Shown: positions 770 to 13,167, counted from the first letter of the stretch. The stretch is 13,167 nt of DNA from a virus (IMGVR_UViG_3300021387_000118:1-13167), one strand, 5' to 3'. Translations and numbers: made by a program. Notes: generated by a model not told the origin, from the letters alone.

Positions 770-967
770 ATGAAACATACAAAACAAGAATATATTGATT
801 TCTTTACCCATATGGAACAAGAAGAAATTCACAATGGGCCTCTGGATGGACAGGCTTGGGACGAAGTTGATTGGTGGATCTATTATGCAGTAGATGTAGA
901 CAAGACACTCACAGAGGATGAACTAAAGGGCATGTTTCCGAACTTGTTCAGATGGGAGGACGAATGA
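770..967 (+). CDS. hypothetical acidic small protein (65 aa)
   Basis: AGGAGA at 760-765 precedes ATG 770. The stop overlaps the next start in an ATGA arrangement at 964-967. Confidence 0.6.
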   Translation: MKHTKQEYIDFFTHMEQEEIHNGPLDGQAWDEVDWWIYYAVDVDKTLTEDELKGMFPNLFRWEDE

Positions 968-1491
968 AAGTTATAACTGCACCGGAGTATTATGAGCCAC
1001 ATGATAAAGATATTTCAGTGTTTCTGGCTGGTGGTATTACGAATTGTCCTGATTGGCAGTCACGGGTAATTAAAACTATAAAAGATGACTATAGTGTAAT
1101 TAGTGATTCACTTGTATTATTTAATCCACGTCGTGAAAATTTTCCAATTCATGATAAACTCGCGGCAATACAGCAAATATTATGGGAGTTTGATATGATT
1201 GAAAAGTGCAATATTTTTTCAATTTATTTTTCATCTGGGGATAGTGATCAGCCGATTTGTATGTATGAACTTGGACGCAATATTTTGAGAATGCAGATGA
1301 GATTCCCATCTGATTGGGAAGACAGAATTATTATCAGTGTCGAAGATGGCTATAGACGCAAACAGGATGTGTTAATTCAGACCGAATTGGCAACAAATAG
1401 TAAGATTTTTGTTAATACACAAGTTTCTAAAGACATAGGTATGGAGTATCACATTCAAAATATAATGAGAGCGTTTAAGAAATTCAGATAG
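964..1491 (+). CDS. nucleoside 2-deoxyribosyltransferase-like protein (PF05014/DUF4406-like Rossmann fold)
   Basis: N-terminal VFLAGGIT resembles the NDT IYFGAGWF motif. DSDQPICMYELGRN resembles the NDT catalytic-Glu motif (G.GMELGYA). GGAGG at 955-959 precedes ATG 964. The alternative start is ATG 952. Confidence 0.55.
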   Translation: MKVITAPEYYEPHDKDISVFLAGGITNCPDWQSRVIKTIKDDYSVISDSLVLFNPRRENFPIHDKLAAIQQILWEFDMIEKCNIFSIYFSSGDSDQPICMYELGRNILRMQMRFPSDWEDRIIISVEDGYRRKQDVLIQTELATNSKIFVNTQVSKDIGMEYHIQNIMRAFKKFR

Positions 1492-1527
1492 TGGATTATT
1501 AATGAGTTTTTGATAGGAGAGAATAAA

Positions 1528-1761
1528 ATGGATTTTTCGCTAGGTGGAATACCAATTTATAACGCAAGAAATATAGAGTGGAAATCAAATGGCGATGGTA
1601 CTGGGCAGCTCTGGTTTAATACTGTGGTTGCAGATAAAAACGGCAAAGAGCAAGATGTAAGATTTCATATATTCAGATTAAAGTTTGATGACCCGTTAAT
1701 ATCTATTGAATCAGTTGATAATAAATTATACGAGATTGAAACGGTAGATCATTCATTCTAA
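1528..1761 (+). CDS. hypothetical protein (77 aa)
   Basis: The conserved junction cassette TTTTGATAGGAGAG ends 8 nt before ATG 1528. The track ORF begins at an upstream TTG in the same frame. Confidence 0.6.
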   Translation: MDFSLGGIPIYNARNIEWKSNGDGTGQLWFNTVVADKNGKEQDVRFHIFRLKFDDPLISIESVDNKLYEIETVDHSF

Positions 1762-1787
1762 TAAAAAGATAATTTAATGGTAAATAA

Positions 1788-1985
1788 ATGATAGGTAAAT
1801 GTCTAAACAACTGTGATAATAAAACCAAAGATGGATATTGCAAAACTACTGGATGTATAAACTCTCAATACCGACAATATCTAACTACGGGTATCGAAGA
1901 TGGATGGATTAAAGTTGATAAACAAACATGGAGAGAGTATCAAATGATGAAAGATCCAGACTACGGAGTTGGAAAATTTAGTTAA
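1788..1985 (+). CDS. small Cys-rich hypothetical protein (65 aa; C..NC...C...C)
   Basis: It is a track ORF with only a weak RBS, but it fits the co-directional packing. Confidence 0.4.
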   Translation: MIGKCLNNCDNKTKDGYCKTTGCINSQYRQYLTTGIEDGWIKVDKQTWREYQMMKDPDYGVGKFS

Positions 1986-2147
1986 TAAATAACTTTTTAT
2001 GCCTGAGATGGTATGCGATTGAGGAAATGAACTCATGATTTAAAAACTAATCATTTAAGCGGTGGGTTAGGATTAGCTCCGAAAGGTAACCATGTCCAAG
2101 GATGAAGCAACTACCGCATAAGAAGACTATTTAATGAGGATCATTGA

Positions 2148-2360
2148 ATGCGTTTATATGAAATCGAAGCAGATTATCGACCGAAGAATCCAAAGAAGCC
2201 CAAATATTATGTCTGGGCAGACACGACTAAAGATGCAAAATTGGTTTTTAACAATATAATCAGTTGGCTTACGATTTATAATGTCGCTCCAATGAACAAA
2301 GAAGACTCTGATAAGATATGTAATGAACCAGATAAGTATATAATCATAGGAAAAAAGTAA
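2148..2360 (+). CDS. hypothetical basic protein (70 aa)
   Basis: GAGGA at 2134-2138 lies 9 nt before ATG 2148. The stop overlaps the start of the next gene (TAATG). Confidence 0.55.
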   Translation: MRLYEIEADYRPKNPKKPKYYVWADTTKDAKLVFNNIISWLTIYNVAPMNKEDSDKICNEPDKYIIIGKK

Positions 2361-2791
2361 TGTATAAACAAATAATCATAGTTCGTAAAGACTTAAATAT
2401 GGGCCACGGCAAGATGGCTGCGCAAGTTGCACATGCTTCAATGTCGTTCTTATCATGGTTTGTAAGAGATAATGCTGACCAAGATGGTCATATTGACGCT
2501 TGGTTTGACAAGGATATCTTAGATAACTGGCTGAATGGCATTTATACTAAGGTTGTGTTACAGGCCAAGAATAAGGGTCAACTAGAGAAAGCAATTATCC
2601 TAGCTAATGAAATAGGCTTGGTGGAGGGGAAAGATTATTTTTTAATCAAAGATAACTGCCTTACAGAGCTTGAGCCGGAAGAAGTTGATGAATATGGTGT
2701 TGGTAGAACATTGACTTGTATTGGATTTAAACCGATGGATTCCGAAGTAATAGACAAGGTTGCCAAGAAGTTTCATATTTATGTAGATTAA
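2360..2791 (+). CDS. pth2: peptidyl-tRNA hydrolase, PTH2 family
   Basis: IIIVRKDLNMGHGKMAAQVAHAS matches the PTH2 signature (VVRxDLxMGKGKxAAQCxHAA). The C-terminal GRTLTCIGFKP...IDKV matches PTH2 (QTVLGIGPGP..IDKV). The TAATG overlap links it to the upstream gene. Confidence 0.85.
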   Translation: MYKQIIIVRKDLNMGHGKMAAQVAHASMSFLSWFVRDNADQDGHIDAWFDKDILDNWLNGIYTKVVLQAKNKGQLEKAIILANEIGLVEGKDYFLIKDNCLTELEPEEVDEYGVGRTLTCIGFKPMDSEVIDKVAKKFHIYVD

Positions 2792-2835
2792 CCAATAAAT
2801 AAGAGTAATACAAGTTGTATTGAAGGATTGTGAGA

Positions 2836-3018
2836 ATGAACAATAAAATAATCTTAGACAATAAAGAAATGTTTGTCGCAGTACAAGAGTATTTATCTAA
2901 AAGAAATATTGAATTACCAGAAGATGTTTCTGTTACTATGAAACTAAAGAAAAGATTGCCAGGAGATCCATTTCCAGATGATTATATTCCGTATATAGAG
3001 GTTGAATATAATGTATGA
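2836..3018 (+). CDS. hypothetical protein (60 aa)
   Basis: AAGGA at 2822-2826 precedes ATG 2836. The track ORF starts at an upstream GTG in the same frame. Confidence 0.5.
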   Translation: MNNKIILDNKEMFVAVQEYLSKRNIELPEDVSVTMKLKKRLPGDPFPDDYIPYIEVEYNV

Positions 3019-3244
3019 ATATATAAATTGTCCCGTCTGCGGAACGCGCAATGAATATACTACTTATTCTGAATTGGGGTTCGGAATAATCGAGCGACAT
3101 TATCATTGTCCTAGATGTACATATTTCGTTGAACAAGCATATAGTCCAGTATGTGTCGGAATTAGTACAGACTGTCCAGAAGAATATCTTGAAAGAGCCA
3201 AAGAGTTGAAATTGGATTTTTATCAGCCGGATGAGATACCGTGA
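3011..3244 (+). CDS. zinc-ribbon protein (CPVCG ... CPRC), 77 aa
   Basis: GAGG at 2998-3001 lies 9 nt before ATG 3011. It carries two CxxC pairs. It overlaps the 3' end of the upstream gene by 8 nt. Confidence 0.6.
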   Translation: MYEYINCPVCGTRNEYTTYSELGFGIIERHYHCPRCTYFVEQAYSPVCVGISTDCPEEYLERAKELKLDFYQPDEIP

Positions 3245-3312
3245 AAGTATGTTGGGTGTAAATCCTAACTCACAGAAAATATTGGGAATGTATGGATTGA
3301 AAGAAGTGTTTT

Positions 3313-3564
3313 ATGAGTAAGAGAAGAAAAGGCCGATCAATTGACCATCATTGGCAATTTGTAAAATATAAAGGTGACGGAGCGTTCTATGCTAAATGCA
3401 GTTGCGGATTTCATTATGGATGTGATAAGCCAAAATACGAAAATTCTAGTATCCCAACAGTCCCATCACCTGAGAAGTTATATAACTACTGCCCACATTG
3501 TGGAGCGAGAAAAACAAGATATTATGATGAACCAATATATATTGATAAGTATTGGTTTGAGTAA
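3313..3564 (+). CDS. zinc-finger-like protein (CSCG ... CPHCG), 83 aa, basic N-terminus
   Basis: It is a track ORF with a weak SD. The overlapping frame at 3374..3568 is less gene-like. Confidence 0.5.
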   Translation: MSKRRKGRSIDHHWQFVKYKGDGAFYAKCSCGFHYGCDKPKYENSSIPTVPSPEKLYNYCPHCGARKTRYYDEPIYIDKYWFE

Positions 3565-3576
3565 ATGAGGATTGAT

Positions 3577-3774
3577 ATGAGTGTTGAAGGATTTTTGCTT
3601 AAAAGAAGAAGGTTTAGAACTACTCACAACATGTATCAACTAACTTGCGACGATGAACATTTTGATTTGGATATGGCGGTTAGCTTATTGGAAAATATTG
3701 GGAAAGTGGCAGAAGATGGTAAAGAGATGTGGACAATAGTTCCACCAGGATATAAATGGAGTGTTGTAAAATGA
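3577..3774 (+). CDS. hypothetical protein (65 aa; 69 aa if started at ATG 3565)
   Basis: GAGGA at 3567-3571 lies 5 nt before ATG 3577. The in-frame ATG 3565 abuts the upstream stop and is the alternative start. Confidence 0.5.
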   Translation: MSVEGFLLKRRRFRTTHNMYQLTCDDEHFDLDMAVSLLENIGKVAEDGKEMWTIVPPGYKWSVVK

Positions 3775-4145
3775 CAAGAGTAATAATTGCGGGGAGCAGA
3801 CAGTTTAATGATTATCATAAGATGTTAACAGAATTGGACAACCTTGGAATTCATTTTATCAATACCATAGATCCAATAGAGATTGTTAGTGGTCATGCTT
3901 CTGGTGCTGATGCTCTTGGCGAAAGATTTGCTAAAGAATATAATTATCCGCTCAAGACATTCCCCGCCGAATGGAATAAATACGGGAAAGCTGCCGGACC
4001 AATCCGCAATGAACAGATGGCTAAATATGCAGCAGAGGCTGATCGAGGGATTTTGATTGCGTTCCCAATTGGAGAGAGTAGGGGAACTAACAATATGATT
4101 AAACTAGCAAAACAGTATGGCCTAGAAGTAAACGTGGTGTATTGA
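3771..4145 (+). CDS. SLOG-superfamily (DprA/LOG-like; DUF2493-like) Rossmann protein
   Basis: VIIAGSRQF is a Rossmann beta1 strand. GHASGADALGERFA matches the GxARGxDxxA motif. AGPIRNEQM matches the GPxRNxxM motif. ATGA overlaps the upstream stop. The alternative start is ATG 3756 with AGGA at 3747-3750. Confidence 0.55.
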   Translation: MTRVIIAGSRQFNDYHKMLTELDNLGIHFINTIDPIEIVSGHASGADALGERFAKEYNYPLKTFPAEWNKYGKAAGPIRNEQMAKYAAEADRGILIAFPIGESRGTNNMIKLAKQYGLEVNVVY

Positions 4146-4166: not shown

Positions 4167-4195
4167 TTGACAACAAGTAGATAAAAAAGTATAAT
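4167..4195 (+). promoter_or_regulatory. perfect sigma-A/sigma-70 consensus promoter TTGACA-N17-TATAAT
   Basis: TTGACA sits at 4167-4172, the spacer is exactly 17 nt, and TATAAT sits at 4190-4195. It lies in the 79-nt gap before the gene at 4225. Confidence 0.75.
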
Positions 4196-4224: not shown

Positions 4225-4584
4225 ATGGCTGGATTAGAAGAACTTAAAACTGTTTACAAAATGATTAAGAATTATTATGGATATAAATGTACAGATGTAA
4301 TTTTCCGCAAAGATGAAGATGACGAATTCTGTGAGTTAGTTTTTGAGTATCAGGGGTTCCCAGTAAAGACAATATTCTCTTATGGGTTTTGCACTAATGT
4401 GATATACCCTAATAATGATGAAGTAACTATCATTGGCAATGATGAAAAGAATGGGGCAGTTCTTTCGACCACGGTTTATTTCGCTATCTGCGATTTTATT
4501 AAGACTATTAATAAGAATAGATTCGATAATGAAGCTATAAATGCATTCATTGATTATCTGTGGGATGATGTTATAAATGTATAA
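4225..4584 (+). CDS. hypothetical protein (119 aa)
   Basis: AAAGGAG lies about 7 nt before ATG 4225. It is the first gene downstream of the consensus promoter. Confidence 0.65.
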   Translation: MAGLEELKTVYKMIKNYYGYKCTDVIFRKDEDDEFCELVFEYQGFPVKTIFSYGFCTNVIYPNNDEVTIIGNDEKNGAVLSTTVYFAICDFIKTINKNRFDNEAINAFIDYLWDDVINV

Positions 4585-4604
4585 TTAAATGAAGAGGAAT
4601 GAAT

Positions 4605-5099
4605 ATGCTATCTCAATCCAACATTGATAAACTTCATGTAAATGGTATTTATAAATGCGAACCCGTATTGAGTTGGTTACCATTCTATAAACGAGATAAT
4701 CCTTACTGGTGTCGCAACTGGACGTTTAAGGTTAAAGAATATAAAGGTCACTATGCTATGTATGATACTTACTGGTCAACAGGTGACGATTATCCAATAG
4801 AACTTACAGATGAGAATTTTGATAAATTTGAATATCTGTTTGATTTGGATGATATTCGGTATATACATGATTATGAAAGCTGGCTTGAATATCCAGAAGA
4901 AGATAGATGGAGAGTGCCACTAGATTCTGGCGGCACCAATCATGCAAAATATGTTGTTCGGCGTGGAGCCAAGAGGGTTAAGGAACGAGTTATCGAGAGA
5001 ATGCAGCGTGATATTGATTGCTTAAAGCATGAGTTATCTCAGAAAGGGCGGATCCTCGAAGGGATTATCAATGGTAGTATTGATTGGAATATATGCTGA
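4605..5099 (+). CDS. hypothetical protein (164 aa), Trp/Tyr-rich
   Basis: GAGG at 4594-4597 lies 7 nt before ATG 4605. ATG 4599 is too close to the SD. Confidence 0.6.
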   Translation: MLSQSNIDKLHVNGIYKCEPVLSWLPFYKRDNPYWCRNWTFKVKEYKGHYAMYDTYWSTGDDYPIELTDENFDKFEYLFDLDDIRYIHDYESWLEYPEEDRWRVPLDSGGTNHAKYVVRRGAKRVKERVIERMQRDIDCLKHELSQKGRILEGIINGSIDWNIC

Positions 5100-5162
5100 T
5101 GGAGAGTGTGATGTGGGATCCAGAAACTGATGCTTGCGATTATTGAAAGGAGAGGACAACTC

Positions 5163-5324
5163 ATGGATCAAGCACATATGATAAAAGACCTTGAAATTGC
5201 AAAATGCATACTGAGTAATTTAAACACCCCACTTGATGGGATGATGAGAGTCTGTATTGGGCAAATTATATCGGAAGCAATTGACGCATTAAAAATAGAG
5301 GAGAAACATAATGAGGATAATTAA
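5163..5324 (+). CDS. small hypothetical protein (53 aa)
   Basis: AAAGGAGAGG at 5146-5155 lies 7 nt before ATG 5163. The track ORF from 5130 lacks an RBS. Confidence 0.5.
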   Translation: MDQAHMIKDLEIAKCILSNLNTPLDGMMRVCIGQIISEAIDALKIEEKHNEDN

Positions 5325-5712
5325 TCGAAATGAATTAGCAAAGATGCCAAATGGCACGGTGTTCTCATCATTTGATGGTTATAGTGTTGACGGATTTGAA
5401 ATTATAACAGGCAGCCATGGTGATGGATTTAATGGTACGCTTGATCTGGAACCAAGTTTTAATTGGGATAGTGATCATGCGGAACGTATTACTAACTGGT
5501 CAACTGTAGATACCGCCGATTATGATTTTGATGAGGATGCCAAGTTCGTTGTTTATAGTAAGAATGAAATACGTGAAATAATTCAGTGGCTAAAATGGGC
5601 CATTGACGAAGACGGACATCCTGATATGGAAAAGTATTTTTATAAAAACCAAGTAATGTCGGAGGGGGAAGCTTCAAAATATACTAATGGTCATGGCTTA
5701 TGGTGGGGATAA
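5311..5712 (+). CDS. hypothetical protein (133 aa)
   Basis: GAGGAG at 5298-5303 lies 7 nt before ATG 5311. Confidence 0.65.
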   Translation: MRIINRNELAKMPNGTVFSSFDGYSVDGFEIITGSHGDGFNGTLDLEPSFNWDSDHAERITNWSTVDTADYDFDEDAKFVVYSKNEIREIIQWLKWAIDEDGHPDMEKYFYKNQVMSEGEASKYTNGHGLWWG

Positions 5713-5724
5713 AACAAGATTTCA

Positions 5725-5904
5725 ATGCCTAATTATGTAAGATGCATTCAGTTAGAACCTGGATTAAAATTATATTATAGTAATAAAGAACAATGTTTAA
5801 GAACATCGGAAGAATTAACAAATGCCGGATTTAAGAATCGTGTTGCATATAATTATGACGGTGATTTTTGGAGTATATATGTATTAGATGAAACAAGTCT
5901 TTGA
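5725..5904 (+). CDS. small hypothetical protein (59 aa), below the ORF-track cutoff
   Basis: It fills an otherwise empty gap. It ends ...DETSL with its stop inside the conserved junction cassette (AAGTCTTTGATAGGAG). The SD is weak. Confidence 0.4.
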   Translation: MPNYVRCIQLEPGLKLYYSNKEQCLRTSEELTNAGFKNRVAYNYDGDFWSIYVLDETSL

Positions 5905-5919
5905 TAGGAGAAAAAATAT

Positions 5920-6120
5920 ATGTACGATCCTGAAGAAATAAATAAAAATCCTTGGTGGTGGATAAGAAATAGAGGAAAAATTAATGATGCTCTTGAAGTA
6001 ATAGATCTTGCTTTAGAAGAATATGATGAGGGACGCGGGTTGGCATTTTCTGATATTCCAGATAAATTTAAAGATATCAAAAATTTCTTTAATGATGTTT
6101 GCTATCCTGATTGGAAGTGA
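5920..6120 (+). CDS. hypothetical Trp-rich protein (66 aa)
   Basis: The junction cassette TTTGATAGGAGAAAAAATAT precedes ATG 5920. Confidence 0.6.
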   Translation: MYDPEEINKNPWWWIRNRGKINDALEVIDLALEEYDEGRGLAFSDIPDKFKDIKNFFNDVCYPDWK

Positions 6121-6144
6121 AAATTAGATTTTATTGGAGAATTT

Positions 6145-6429
6145 ATGAAGAAGATTGATGAAGGAAATATGAGTGGACTTCGTGATTGGTGTGCTATGCA
6201 TGGTATAATATACGTGCAATGGTATCCATATGATAATTGTTCTGGTTATTACATAGAGAATCCATCAGAGGATGCATTGGAAAAATTCTATGAAAATGTT
6301 AATGCGTCTGATCCATATCATAGATCTTTTGTTTTAATATTGGGGAAGACTGAAACTCATAATAATTTGAACATGAGAACTATTGATGAATATATACAAC
6401 ATGGTATATTACCTTTTCTATTTTGTTGA
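6145..6429 (+). CDS. hypothetical protein (94 aa) carrying an LRDWC motif
   Basis: The cassette TTTTATTGGAGAATTT precedes ATG 6145. It contains a 17-nt exact repeat shared with the gene at 7415. Confidence 0.6.
   Translation: MKKIDEGNMSGLRDWCAMHGIIYVQWYPYDNCSGYYIENPSEDALEKFYENVNASDPYHRSFVLILGKTETHNNLNMRTIDEYIQHGILPFLFC
6177..6193 (+). repeat. 17-nt exact repeat ACTTCGTGATTGGTGTG (copy 1, inside the gene at 6145)
   Basis: The identical 17-mer recurs at 7558-7574 inside the gene at 7415. Both copies encode LRDWC. Confidence 0.8.
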
Positions 6430-8252: not shown

Positions 8253-8606
8253 ATGAAGAGCTGTCCAAATTGTGGCGCACCATTTGAACCTTATAAATGC
8301 AAGTGTGAATTTTGCGGCACATGGTACTTTGATTTCACTGCATTTGATATGAGTGAGAATGTACCATACTATGTAAAGTTTAGAACGCCATATGGAATAA
8401 TTACTACATTGGCTAGACCGGAATTACAGACAATTGAAGTAAATGACGATTATTATTATGCCTGTAATTCAAGGGGTAATAAAATTGCTAAAATTGTTGG
8501 GAACAGAAGCTGTGATCTTAATGTAACATTTCATTCACAGATTGATCCAGAAACTGAAACGTTGTATCAGTTGGAAGTATCTAATGAAAATGGAATAGAA
8601 AAATGA
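8253..8606 (+). CDS. zinc-ribbon protein (CPNCG ... CKCEFCG N-terminus), 117 aa
   Basis: GGGAGA at 8239-8244 lies 8 nt before ATG 8253. It has an N-terminal Cys4-type ribbon. Confidence 0.65.
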   Translation: MKSCPNCGAPFEPYKCKCEFCGTWYFDFTAFDMSENVPYYVKFRTPYGIITTLARPELQTIEVNDDYYYACNSRGNKIAKIVGNRSCDLNVTFHSQIDPETETLYQLEVSNENGIEK

Positions 8607-9984: not shown

Positions 9985-10644
9985 ATGAGTAATTATGTAA
10001 TTCACGCTTGCCCTAAGAGATTGTGGTATGTAGAAGAATTTCTCGTACCATCACTCAAAGAACAGGGCATAGAGAATATTGACGTAAGATGTGACAACTT
10101 TAAGCGTGGTAATCTTTTGTATTGTATGGATATCTTTGGAAGAATGACCGGAGATGGTGGCAGTTGGCACATACAGGACGATGTGGTTATTTGCCGAGAT
10201 TTCGCTCAACGTACTGCTAAGTATGATGGCAAGAATGAAATAGTGTGTGGCTTTGCTTGGGATAAAGATCCTAACATAGACAAAATCGACCATGTGCAGC
10301 AATCTGATATGTGGTACTCATTTCCTTGTATATATATCCCTAACTACATTGCCAAGGAATGTTCTGAATGGTTTTTCAATAAAGGACGATATGATGGAAG
10401 ATATTTATCATTTAGCGTTAAAGGCCAGTTCGATGATTATTTCTTCCAGAAGTATCTGATGGAGTATTATCCAGAACTTCCCGTTCTACATATTAAGCCG
10501 AGTCTTGTTGATCATATTGATTACCTAATTGGTGGAACAACAGTGGAAGCTATTGGCAGAGACGAGGTTAGTAGAGCAAAGTGGTTTGATGATCCTGATC
10601 TTGTTAATCAATTAAAGGAGAGGTTAAAATACAGAAATGGCTAA
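9985..10644 (+). CDS. first copy of a tandem paralog pair: GT-A-fold/DxD-like putative glycosyltransferase (219 aa)
   Basis: GGAG at 9974-9977 lies 7 nt before ATG 9985. DGGSWHIQDDVVI resembles the GT-A (h)GG(v)Y(l)DxDhh motif. The C-terminal LVDHIDYLIGG has an H-x-D pair. It is clearly paralogous to the ORF at 10637..11302. Confidence 0.6.
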   Translation: MSNYVIHACPKRLWYVEEFLVPSLKEQGIENIDVRCDNFKRGNLLYCMDIFGRMTGDGGSWHIQDDVVICRDFAQRTAKYDGKNEIVCGFAWDKDPNIDKIDHVQQSDMWYSFPCIYIPNYIAKECSEWFFNKGRYDGRYLSFSVKGQFDDYFFQKYLMEYYPELPVLHIKPSLVDHIDYLIGGTTVEAIGRDEVSRAKWFDDPDLVNQLKERLKYRNG

Positions 10645-11302
10645 TTATTTAATTCATGCTTGTCCAGAACGAATGTGGTATGTGGATAATTATCTGGTGC
10701 CATCACTTCGTAATCAGGGTATTAATAATATTATTGTCAGTTGTGATCAGTTACATTTGGGGAATCTAGAAAGTTGTATGAAGATTTTCGGTTCTCTGGA
10801 AGACGATGGTTATGGTACATGGCATCTGCAAGATGATGTGATTATATGCCGGAACTTTCGGGAAATTACCGAGAGATATGATTATGGTGTTGTTTGCGGT
10901 TTCACTCATTCACGATCTGCTAACACTGGATTTGTTTTACCGGATAAGATGTGGTACTCATTTCCATGTATTAGAATATCTAACGGGATAGCCAAAGAAT
11001 GTTCACAGTGGTACTATTCGTTCGCTAAGAAATATGCTAAATATTATGAATGGGTTCATATGGGGAAATGTGATGATAATTTCTTCTATGAATTCATGAA
11101 TAAGTATTGTTCTACATTAGATGTATTAAATCTAGTTCCTAATTTGGTTGATCATATTGATTACCTTCTGGGAGGATCAATGGTTAACCAATACAGGAAT
11201 GGCGAACAATTTAGATCAGCTTACTTTGAGGATGTTGATCTTGTAGATCAATTAGCTAATGATATAAGGAGAAATAATAATGGTACGAATGCTTCATTAT
11301 GA
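10637..11302 (+). CDS. second copy of the tandem paralog pair: GT-A-fold/DxD-like putative glycosyltransferase (221 aa)
   Basis: It shares with the upstream ORF the blocks YxIHACPxRxWYV..LVPSL, WHxQDDVxICRxF, MWYSFPCI, IAKECSxW and LVDHIDYLxGG. It overlaps the upstream stop by 8 nt. AAGGAGAGG lies upstream. Confidence 0.6.
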   Translation: MANYLIHACPERMWYVDNYLVPSLRNQGINNIIVSCDQLHLGNLESCMKIFGSLEDDGYGTWHLQDDVIICRNFREITERYDYGVVCGFTHSRSANTGFVLPDKMWYSFPCIRISNGIAKECSQWYYSFAKKYAKYYEWVHMGKCDDNFFYEFMNKYCSTLDVLNLVPNLVDHIDYLLGGSMVNQYRNGEQFRSAYFEDVDLVDQLANDIRRNNNGTNASL

Positions 11303-11943: not shown

Positions 11944-11972
11944 TTGTCATTCTAGTATGTGAGTAGTATAAT
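11944..11972 (+). promoter_or_regulatory. near-consensus sigma-A promoter TTGTCA-N17-TATAAT
   Basis: TTGTCA sits at 11944-11949, the spacer is 17 nt, and TATAAT sits at 11967-11972. It lies in the 98-nt gap upstream of the HPr-like gene. Confidence 0.7.
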
Positions 11973-12697: not shown

Positions 12698-13167
12698 ATG
12701 GAGTTTGTAAATGAAATCATTAACAATATCTGGAAAGACAGATATAGAAAGAATAATGAAACACTTGAGGGTAATTTTAGAAGAGTTGCGAAGTTTTGTG
12801 CGAAAGATAAAAATGATGAAAATGACTTTTTTAATGTTATGGACAGAGGTCTTTTTTATCCGGCTGGAAGAACTATGAGTAATTCTGGTGTTGGTACAAA
12901 ACTAACTCTTAATAATTGCTTTACGGCTCCCCAAATTGGAGATAGCTACGATGAAATATTTGACAGAGTAAGACTTGGGGCAGTTACTCATCAGCGCGGT
13001 GGAGGTATTGGATATGATTTCTCGCAGCTTCGTCCTAAAGGATCTCCTACTTCTAATAACGCAGTTGCTTCTGGACCAGTGAGTTTTATGGATGTTTTTA
13101 ATGCACAGACAGAGACTACAATCCAGGGGCAACGCCGTGGAGCAAATATGGGTATTATGAATGTATA
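12698..13167 (+). CDS. nrdJ: ribonucleotide reductase catalytic subunit, N-terminal part (runs off the window); most consistent with class II adenosylcobalamin-dependent NrdJ
   Basis: GAGGAGG at 12685-12691 lies 6 nt before ATG 12698. LNNCF, RGGGIGYDFSQLRPKGS, ASGPVSFMDVF and QRRGANMG match the RNR active-site and N-terminal signatures (compare Thermotoga NrdJ: LSACFV, GGGTGFSFSRLRPKG, ASGPVSFMRVFD, KRRGANM). It is absent from the ORF track because there is no stop in the window. Confidence 0.8.
   Translation, partial: MEFVNEIINNIWKDRYRKNNETLEGNFRRVAKFCAKDKNDENDFFNVMDRGLFYPAGRTMSNSGVGTKLTLNNCFTAPQIGDSYDEIFDRVRLGAVTHQRGGGIGYDFSQLRPKGSPTSNNAVASGPVSFMDVFNAQTETTIQGQRRGANMGIMNV

Follow-up and report, generated by a model that had tools for sequence, protein, structure and literature searches.

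A PF15891 protein and a stand-alone YAcAr protein encoded as separate accessory genes in a viral genome fragment

In the N-hydrolase DNPH1 (Rcl), catalysis depends on the triad Y24/D80/E104, and the 5'-phosphate of the substrate is held by S98 and S128'; in the related enzyme MilB, F17 occupies the position equivalent to Y24 and accommodates ribose, a preference that is reversed by the F17Y replacement (PMC10603095). Among SLOG domains, the G289-S290 loop of ThsA contacts the diphosphate of the ligand and E403 contacts its distal ribose diol (10.1101/2022.05.07.491051), the GxD/E motif of YpsA is functionally required, as its mutation inactivates YpsA (PMC6459960), and ShosA binds single-stranded DNA (ssDNA) (PMC11961720). 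A protein from each of these two superfamilies is encoded in a 13,167-nucleotide stretch of viral DNA (IMGVR_UViG_3300021387_000118:1-13167), the whole of which is called the window here. Protein A (positions 964 to 1491, plus strand, 175 amino acids) has the fold of the nucleoside 2-deoxyribosyltransferases (NDTs), and protein B (positions 3771 to 4145, plus strand, 124 amino acids) has the SLOG fold.

Both proteins add new members to known families that occur widely in phages, and they do not make up a joint system. They are independently mobile cassettes, that is, separate single-domain accessory genes and not a two-component system. The explanation that best accounts for all observations taken jointly is that A would be a ribosyl N-glycosidase, B would be a noncatalytic binder, and the two would be independent of each other, and we hold this combination with roughly even confidence. 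A first-pass annotation of the same DNA had placed both open reading frames (ORFs) at these coordinates and on this strand, with the motifs FLAGG and MYELG in A and GPxRNxxM in B, all of which are indeed present.

Family, active site, and predicted chemistry of protein A

Protein A belongs to PF15891 (Nuc_deoxyri_tr2), within the NDT/"DrHyd" superfamily, and scores well above the Pfam cutoff (E value of 8.7e-13, 49 bits versus a cutoff of 30). A database search recovered 1578 homologs, nearly all of them unnamed metagenomic proteins, and the PF15891 domain was present in all 120 of the homologs listed. An exhaustive search of cluster representatives at 50% identity gave 1436 matches at an E value of ≤0.001. 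Its members come mainly from large phages of the gut, the rumen, and the environment, and the family has a solved structure, 4MCJ. We found no match for A in NCBIfam or PADLOC and none to the canonical NDT family, PF05014, even at an E value of ≤1, and the literature search returned no paper on PF15891 or 4MCJ.

The AlphaFold (AF2) model of A, obtained from an alignment of 58 sequences, has a predicted local distance difference test (pLDDT) value of 90.2 and a predicted template modeling (pTM) score of 0.88, and it shows a three-layer alpha/beta fold like that of 4MCJ and the NDTs. The best Foldseek match of this model is 4MCJ (E value of 4e-6, probability of 1.0, template modeling [TM] score of 0.57 to 0.63), after which come BlsM, the first characterized enzyme (rank 12), NDTs, DNPH1/Rcl (8RPT, 8RQD, and 2KHZ), and YtoQ. 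A profile made from 80 diverse homologs matched 4MCJ with an E value of 1.2e-15 over residues 16 to 134, and no other solved protein was significant. The NDT-like fold that the first-pass annotation had proposed for A is therefore supported by the family score, by a confident model, and by the structural matches to 4MCJ, NDTs, and DNPH1.

In the 80 diverse homologs, the columns corresponding to G23, W31, N54, P55, Q71, F89, E102, G104, D135, and Q139 are invariant, and E75 (78/80), R56 (78/80), and R57 (74/80) are nearly so. E102, contained in the MYELG motif (residues 100 to 104), is placed in an xYExG context, where the helix that follows strand 3 begins, and aligns with E104 of DNPH1; both its complete conservation (80/80) and this alignment agree with the catalytic role already assigned to the glutamate of that motif. 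Position 20, which opens the FLAGG motif (residues 20 to 24) and corresponds to the catalytic tyrosine of NDT and DNPH1, is a phenylalanine in 79 of the 80 sequences. A third conserved element is the NPRR loop at residues 54 to 57. In a low-confidence hhalign alignment, F20 pairs with Y24 of DNPH1, the YELGR motif with its YELGR counterpart (E102 with E104), and D135 with S128, and the phosphate-binding serines S98 and S128' of DNPH1 correspond in the same alignment to Q96/I98 and D135 of A.

As Glu102 is kept, a phenylalanine stands in the place of the tyrosine, and the phosphate serines of DNPH1 are absent, A would most likely be a retaining N-glycosidase that is active on a ribosyl, and not a deoxyribosyl, substrate, which is probably phosphorylated. 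The same residues (phenylalanine for tyrosine, and Q96/I98 and D135 for the phosphate serines) speak against the Rcl-type N-glycosidase activity on deoxyribonucleoside monophosphates (dNMPs) that had been suggested for A. In the mechanism that we propose, Glu102, located where helix 3 begins, would displace the base by attack on C1' of a nucleotide whose sugar is ribose and not 2'-deoxyribose, and water would then cleave the covalent ribosyl-enzyme so formed. Phe20 would replace the tyrosine that clashes with the 2'-OH, the NPRR loop probably holds the phosphate, and D135 is probably contributed to the active site by the partner subunit. We can predict a substrate resembling a ribonucleoside 5'-phosphate, which could be a nucleoside monophosphate (NMP) or a compound derived from NAD or ADP-ribose. 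As a description of the chemistry of A, the name "2-deoxyribosyltransferase-like" probably misleads, and the conserved glutamate, together with the phenylalanine-for-tyrosine exchange in PF15891, leads to a sharp biochemical hypothesis, that of a ribo-specific N-glycosidase.

One of the phage loci fetched for comparison (designated by L numbers), L003, comes from a relative of this phage and encodes, besides its A homolog, a canonical PF05014 NDT located 7 kb upstream of the A gene, in which the tyrosine (IYLAGG) and the GTxxE motif are intact. F20 of A aligns with the tyrosine of this NDT. Since L003 has both proteins, A is not a stand-in for the canonical enzyme. Positions 223 to 1667 of this locus contain a thymidylate-synthase-family gene, a DUF1599 gene, and the canonical NDT, so that the lineage encodes two different proteins of the NDT superfamily; the ThyA-family enzyme could be a hydroxymethylase. 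Elsewhere in the family, rare fusions join PF15891 to NUDIX, GDSL hydrolase, pentapeptide repeats, or a Ras-like GTPase (P0266, P0267, P0296, P0318, and P0335), and one A homolog (P0377) contains a tandem duplication of the domain.

Protein B, a YAcAr domain of the SLOG superfamily

Protein B matches PF10686 (YAcAr, formerly DUF2493) with an E value of 1.3e-14 (54.2 bits versus a Pfam cutoff of 28.2), and this domain is present in all the B homologs listed; the families of A and B have more than 1500 homologs each. The predicted model of B has the SLOG Rossmannoid fold, and Foldseek matched it to ShosA/DprA, YpsA, and the SLOG domain of ThsA. Family score and structural matches thus confirm the earlier description of B as SLOG/DUF2493-like, and the profile and structure checks assigned neither A nor B to an unrelated family. 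At the sequence level, searches of the PDB with B and its profiles gave nothing significant. The borderline match was DprA of Streptococcus pneumoniae (E value of 0.047), with the GSR and SGxAxGxD motifs aligned, and the matches to SETD2, USP, and uS3 in the same database were spurious. B had no match in NCBIfam, PADLOC, or PF03641, and its score against the Pfam DprA family (PF02481) was below threshold (13.7 bits, cutoff of 29.6).

The YAcAr domain was detected by tblastn in 1478 of 50,697 phage records (~3%), of which 610 are Mycobacterium phage records. It is also found in Basilisk-like phages of Bacillus and at the C terminus of HelB, the accessory helicase of ICP1. Proteins of Cellulophaga, Bacillus, and Vibrio phages share 45 to 52% identity with B itself.

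The recognizable motifs of B are G8-S9-R10, S40-G41...G45-A46-D47, R79-N80, and S103-x-G105-T106. Among diverse IMG/VR homologs, G8, R10, G41, D47, A66, R79, N80, F98, and G105 are invariant, position 45 is a glycine in at least 90% of the sequences, and M109 is found in ~97%. The GPxRNxxM signature corresponds to GPIRNEQM at residues 76 to 83. The other signature attributed to B, GxxSGADxxA, is present as SGHASGADALG (residues 40 to 50) but ends in G50 and not in an alanine. By motif register, the methionine of G105-T106-N-N-M109 falls at the position of the glutamate in the GTxxE motif of LOG and ThsA. The glutamate that ends the PGGxGTxxE motif of LOG proteins is catalytic.

Because the GSR and GxD motifs are kept and a methionine is found at the position of the LOG/ThsA glutamate, B is most likely a noncatalytic SLOG binding domain of the DprA/YpsA type. 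The GSR loop would grip a phosphate and the GxD motif would hold a ribose or a base, and we can assume that B would bind or sequester a nucleotide-derived ligand or a nucleic acid end without turnover. The protein is roughly charge neutral, with 14 K/R against 14 D/E residues. The ligand of YAcAr, once known, would annotate thousands of genes.

Independent occurrence of A and B and gene layout of the window

The first-pass annotation had proposed co-occurrence across related phages as a check on a connection between the two genes, and this co-occurrence turned out to be rare. We scanned ±10 kb in 107 A loci (76 IMG/VR loci around A homologs plus further contigs) with a narrow and a broad hidden Markov model of B and looked for A homologs in 80 IMG/VR loci around B homologs. 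Among the 107 A loci, those with B at a distance of 10 kb or less come from 3 distinct phages (L003/L004, which are one phage, L166, and L037), with one additional marginal match, and an A homolog was located near B in only 1 of the 80 B loci (L134). The two genes, which are separated in the window by eight other ORFs, were never adjacent in the loci compared. In L003, where A is 90% identical to that of the window, the interval between A and B is 1.3 kb and has no PTH2 gene, and in L166 the order of the window is inverted, with B placed 2.5 kb upstream. Neither A nor B has a neighbor that is conserved in more than ~10% of the loci.

The position occupied by A is a variable cassette site. In the window, A (ATG at position 964, preceded by a good ribosome-binding site, GGGAGGA) is flanked on the left by an ORF of 65 amino acids (770 to 967, plus strand), whose stop codon overlaps the start of A (ATGA), and on the right by the ORF at 1510 to 1761 (plus strand). 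L084, a close relative, retains the left-flank ORF (4529 to 4720, 93% identical), the right-flank ORF (6063 to 6284, 83%), and B (83%), and A is absent, its slot (4720 to 6063) being filled with four unrelated small ORFs (90, 56, 82, and 81 amino acids). In L164/L165, an A homolog of 78% identity (10001 to 10528) is found between the tail genes and the holin/amidase, and no B is present. This phage is temperate and ~40 kb long, with two integrases, HicB, and an S24-peptidase/CI-like repressor. The placement of A there is moron-like, unlike the large-phage context of the window; the search for a moron-type promoter or terminator around A in L164 gave nothing convincing.

A contrasting proposal, made in the first-pass annotation, is that A, B, a peptidyl-tRNA hydrolase gene (PTH2), and a ribonucleotide reductase (RNR) gene form one nucleotide-centered accessory module. 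Read as an operon whose products act together, this would mean, for example, that the base or ribosyl-phosphate released by A is bound or processed by B. The two additional genes are real. The PTH2-type peptidyl-tRNA hydrolase (2360 to 2791, plus strand, 143 amino acids), located between A and B, matches PF01981 with an E value of 9.1e-24 and NCBIfam Pth2 with 1.9e-22, the latter below the curated cutoff of that model. It is longer than the 115-position model, which implies insertions of ~25 residues, and it has no PADLOC match. The RNR is a class II (B12-dependent) enzyme of which the N-terminal 156 codons (12698 to 13167, plus strand) are included before the gene runs off the end of the window. 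It matches the NrdJ models PRK08665 (1.9e-33) and NrdJ_Z (7.9e-32) of NCBIfam, with scores below the full-length cutoffs because the window holds a fragment only. The family matches of A, B, PTH2, and the RNR are far beyond chance.

All four genes of the proposed operon are on the same strand, and A and B could be cotranscribed, since the region between them has no predicted strong promoter or terminator. The RNR, however, starts 8.5 kb beyond B, past two strong sigma-70-type promoter-like sites, both on the plus strand and known as consensus matches only: TTGACA-17-TATAAT at 4167 to 4195 (12/12 matches), in the gap just after B, and a second site at 11944 to 11972 (11/12 matches), before the unit with the RNR. 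These sites are in the two largest intergenic gaps of the window, which they appear to split into at least three rightward transcription units. The first of them probably starts the next unit after B, and with both sites ahead of it, the RNR probably belongs to a different transcription unit. PTH2 is conserved neither with A nor with B: of the 189 loci fetched, L146 is the only one with a homolog, and the A-B interval of L003 contains none. The membership of A and B in sister superfamilies of the TIR-DrHyd-SLOG clade (PMC9503650) and their recurrence together in L003/L004, L166, and the distant L037 and L134 would fit a common module, but the share of loci with both genes inside 10 kb is only ~3%, whether counted from A or from B, the two are never adjacent and have the reversed order in L166, L084 keeps B with other genes in place of A, and A is found alone in the temperate phage. 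The proposal of a single module is largely refuted by the rarity of A-B co-occurrence, the missing PTH2 in L003, and the replacement of A in L084, and we regard it as very unlikely. Guilt-by-association screens should take A and B as two separate genes and not as a system.

The window as a whole is a one-directional array of ~45 mostly small plus-strand genes, with a GC content of ~0.35 and a strongly positive GC skew. Megablast of the whole window against INPHARED gave no match among the deposited phages, and a search of IMG/VR for exact 51-mers gave none either. Looked up as exact proteins, A had no match and B matched only contigs of <2 kb, so neither the source contig nor its structural genes were recovered. 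The source is probably a large, low-GC phage infecting a gut or rumen Firmicute. When searched in genome contigs, relatives of A were found exclusively in contigs of metagenome-assembled genomes (MAGs), mostly short, with several of >60 kb, the best being a Lachnospiraceae MAG (57% identity); as there was no isolate genome among them, the host is only suggested.

Downstream of A, the small plus-strand ORFs at 1510 to 1761, 1788 to 1985, and 2148 to 2360 had no Pfam or PHROG matches. The 162-nucleotide gap at 1986 to 2147 contains no Rfam family and no tRNA and has an unremarkable folding z-score (−0.85). Directly upstream of B there are four small plus-strand ORFs (2830 to 3774) with tight spacing and overlaps, the last of which (3565 to 3774) overlaps the start of B in an ATGA. 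According to the comparison of neighbors in the B loci, none of these four is a conserved partner of B. Two of them (3002 to 3244 and 3313 to 3564) are Cys rich and zinc-ribbon-like, with Pfam zinc-ribbon matches that are subthreshold only. Small proteins of this kind (CxxC...CxxC) are scattered through the array, at 201 to 431 and 8253 to 8606 in addition to those two, and the one at 8253 to 8606 recurs near B homologs in other IMG/VR phages (e.g., L094). Aside from such weak zinc-ribbon signals, the remaining ORFs of the window had no family matches, and no Macro, NADAR, or Nudix genes of the kind reported beside viral SLOG genes (PMC9503650) were found in it.

Further downstream, two overlapping plus-strand genes (9985 to 10644 and 10637 to 11302) encode tandem paralogs of 219 and 221 amino acids that are 47% identical. 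This family has 705 metagenomic homologs, with no Pfam or PHROG model and no PADLOC match, and its invariant residues are W62-H63-x-Q65-D66-D67 and H173-x-D175. Its profile gave a weak match (E value of 0.046) to the GT-A glycosyltransferase A197 of Sulfolobus turreted icosahedral virus (STIV), with the DxD motif aligned, and the two proteins may be glycosyltransferases, perhaps involved in DNA or surface modification. With regard to nucleotide synthesis, the related large phage L166, which also has A, codes for the anaerobic NrdD/NrdG and ThyX, versus the class II adenosylcobalamin-dependent RNR of the window, and the nucleotide-synthesis gene sets thus differ within the group.

Possible roles and comparison with described systems

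Several points weigh against the reading of A as a ribosyl N-glycosidase and B as a noncatalytic binder without genetic linkage between them. The residue equivalences of both proteins depend on hhalign/profile alignments and motif register. The pairing of A with human DNPH1 comes from a profile alignment to a single DNPH1 sequence, with a probability of only 4%; the numbering of that sequence agrees with Y24, D80, E104, S98, and S128 of the published enzyme (PMC10603095). The equivalent of the general acid D80 is ambiguous, being Q71 by hhalign and E75 by ungapped helix register, and the TM scores of A to characterized enzymes are modest (0.45 to 0.5 by Foldseek). The fusion partners of A are too heterogeneous to point to one substrate. 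In the case of B, the closest folds include the ssDNA-binding proteins DprA and ShosA, and the ligand may therefore be DNA and not a small molecule. For both families, the literature search found no activity or ligand reported for any PF15891 or PF10686 member. Last, the linkage counts cover ±10 kb around each gene, and in large phages the two genes could co-occur more often across the whole genome.

As for the biological role, we weigh counterdefense or host manipulation about equally with nucleotide and DNA housekeeping. In the housekeeping alternative, A would act on the nucleotide pool as an N-glycosidase or transferase (DNPH1-, MilB-, or NDT-like), in salvage, sanitation, or base modification, and B, as a minimal DprA-like protein, would bind ssDNA and assist replication or recombination. 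Such roles are suggested by the gene neighborhoods of large phages, in which A is often next to primase, DnaB, SbcCD, and Pol III alpha, and by the nucleotide genes of the region, with ThyA-family, DUF1599, canonical NDT, ThyX, and NrdDG genes in relatives and the RNR in the window. The tandem putative glycosyltransferases at 9985 to 11302 are a weak hint at a modified genome. Nevertheless, A lacks the tyrosine and phosphate serines of the dNMP enzymes, is dispensable and swappable in close relatives, and in the 40-kb temperate phage is found far from nucleotide genes. On the side of B, the DprA-like motifs point in the same direction, its best structural and sequence matches are ShosA, an ssDNA-binding protein (PMC11961720), and DprA, and HelB of ICP1 combines YAcAr with an SF1B helicase, while fusions to HNH, exonuclease, and helicase domains are reported as well (PMC9503650). 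Against this, B is charge neutral, has none of the extra domains of DprA, and scores below the DprA Pfam threshold. We consider this alternative as a whole tentative and somewhat unlikely.

The counterdefense alternative also leaves the two genes independent: A would cleave NAD or an NAD-derived signal (cyclic ADP-ribose isomers or His-ADP-ribose), and B would be a ThsA-mimicking SLOG decoy or sponge. It draws on the cassette behavior of the genes, the moron-like placement of A in the temperate phage, the ribose-permissive phenylalanine, and the role in immune signaling of viral SLOG domains, which is a published prediction of the Aravind group (PMC9503650). We nonetheless judge it unlikely. 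B has Met109 where E403 of ThsA holds the distal ribose, the Macro/NADAR neighbors described for viral SLOG genes are absent, and neither protein matches PADLOC or a known sponge or anti-defense family in Pfam or PHROGs. In addition, the literature search found no experimental report on viral SLOG proteins, and the breadth of the YAcAr domain, present in ~3% of phage genomes including the mycobacteriophage records, is not obviously tied to Thoeris hosts.

A more specific proposal on the same line concerns the family of A. In the published survey, the DrHyd domains of viruses are only of the ADP-ribosyl-cyclase type (PMC9503650). The phage PF15891 clade might be an unrecognized viral NDT/DrHyd branch that hydrolyzes the N-glycosidic bond of a ribosyl group, either in NAD+ itself or in an immune messenger derived from NAD, which we think improbable; separately, the stand-alone YAcAr SLOG protein could be a sensor-mimicking sponge. 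If this were true, the clade would represent a new enzymatic class of anti-TIR/Thoeris counterdefense.

Compared with the described enzymes, A is closest to 4MCJ, the structural-genomics entry of BDI_0649 from Parabacteroides distasonis, labeled a putative nucleoside deoxyribosyltransferase, with which it has in common FLAG(G/T)I, FNPRR, Q..WE, P-I-x-x-(Y)-E-x-G, and Y-R-x-D-x-V. Identity is only ~20%, and A has a longer segment between helix 3 and strand 4 and a C-terminal helix (residues 156 to 174). With DNPH1/Rcl, A shares the fold, an identical YELGR nucleophile motif, and the glycine-rich loop after strand 1, and it differs in the change of Y24 to F20, the replacement of the phosphate serines, and the added invariant NPRR loop. 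Without the tyrosine and the phosphate serines, identification of A as a DNPH1/Rcl-type dNMP N-hydrolase was discarded. The canonical NDTs (PF05014, e.g., the L. leichmannii NDT, 1F8X) have the fold and the glutamate nucleophile in common with A, which nevertheless has no PF05014 match, carries a phenylalanine for the catalytic tyrosine (Y7 in the L. leichmannii enzyme), and lacks the D..GTxxE motif; the missing family match and Phe20 exclude a canonical NDT (EC 2.4.2.6). MilB and BlsM, N-glycosidases of CMP and hydroxymethyl-CMP, are from the same superfamily, and MilB and A have a phenylalanine at the tyrosine position. There is no sequence-level match between them and A, the phosphate contacts S97 and R23 of MilB are not evident in A, and their context is antibiotic biosynthesis, while that of A is a phage.

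Protein B has the GSR and GxD motifs in common with DprA and YpsA. Next to DprA and ShosA, it is half the size, with no SAM or winged-helix domains and no net positive charge, and its single 124-amino-acid domain and subthreshold PF02481 score rule out a full DprA. At the motif level, the SLOG sensor of ThsA (7UXS) and B both have the glycine-serine loop (G8-S9 in B), but B has Met109 for E403 and no fused effector, differences that exclude a sensor-effector of the ThsA type. A phosphoribohydrolase of the LOG type is ruled out as well, by the lack of a PF03641 match and by Met109, which by motif register takes the place of the last glutamate of PGGxGTxxE. Within PF10686, the "Mycobacteriophage D29 gp61" family that includes the C-terminal domain of HelB, B shows no qualitative difference from the other members and is a typical, full-length, stand-alone representative.

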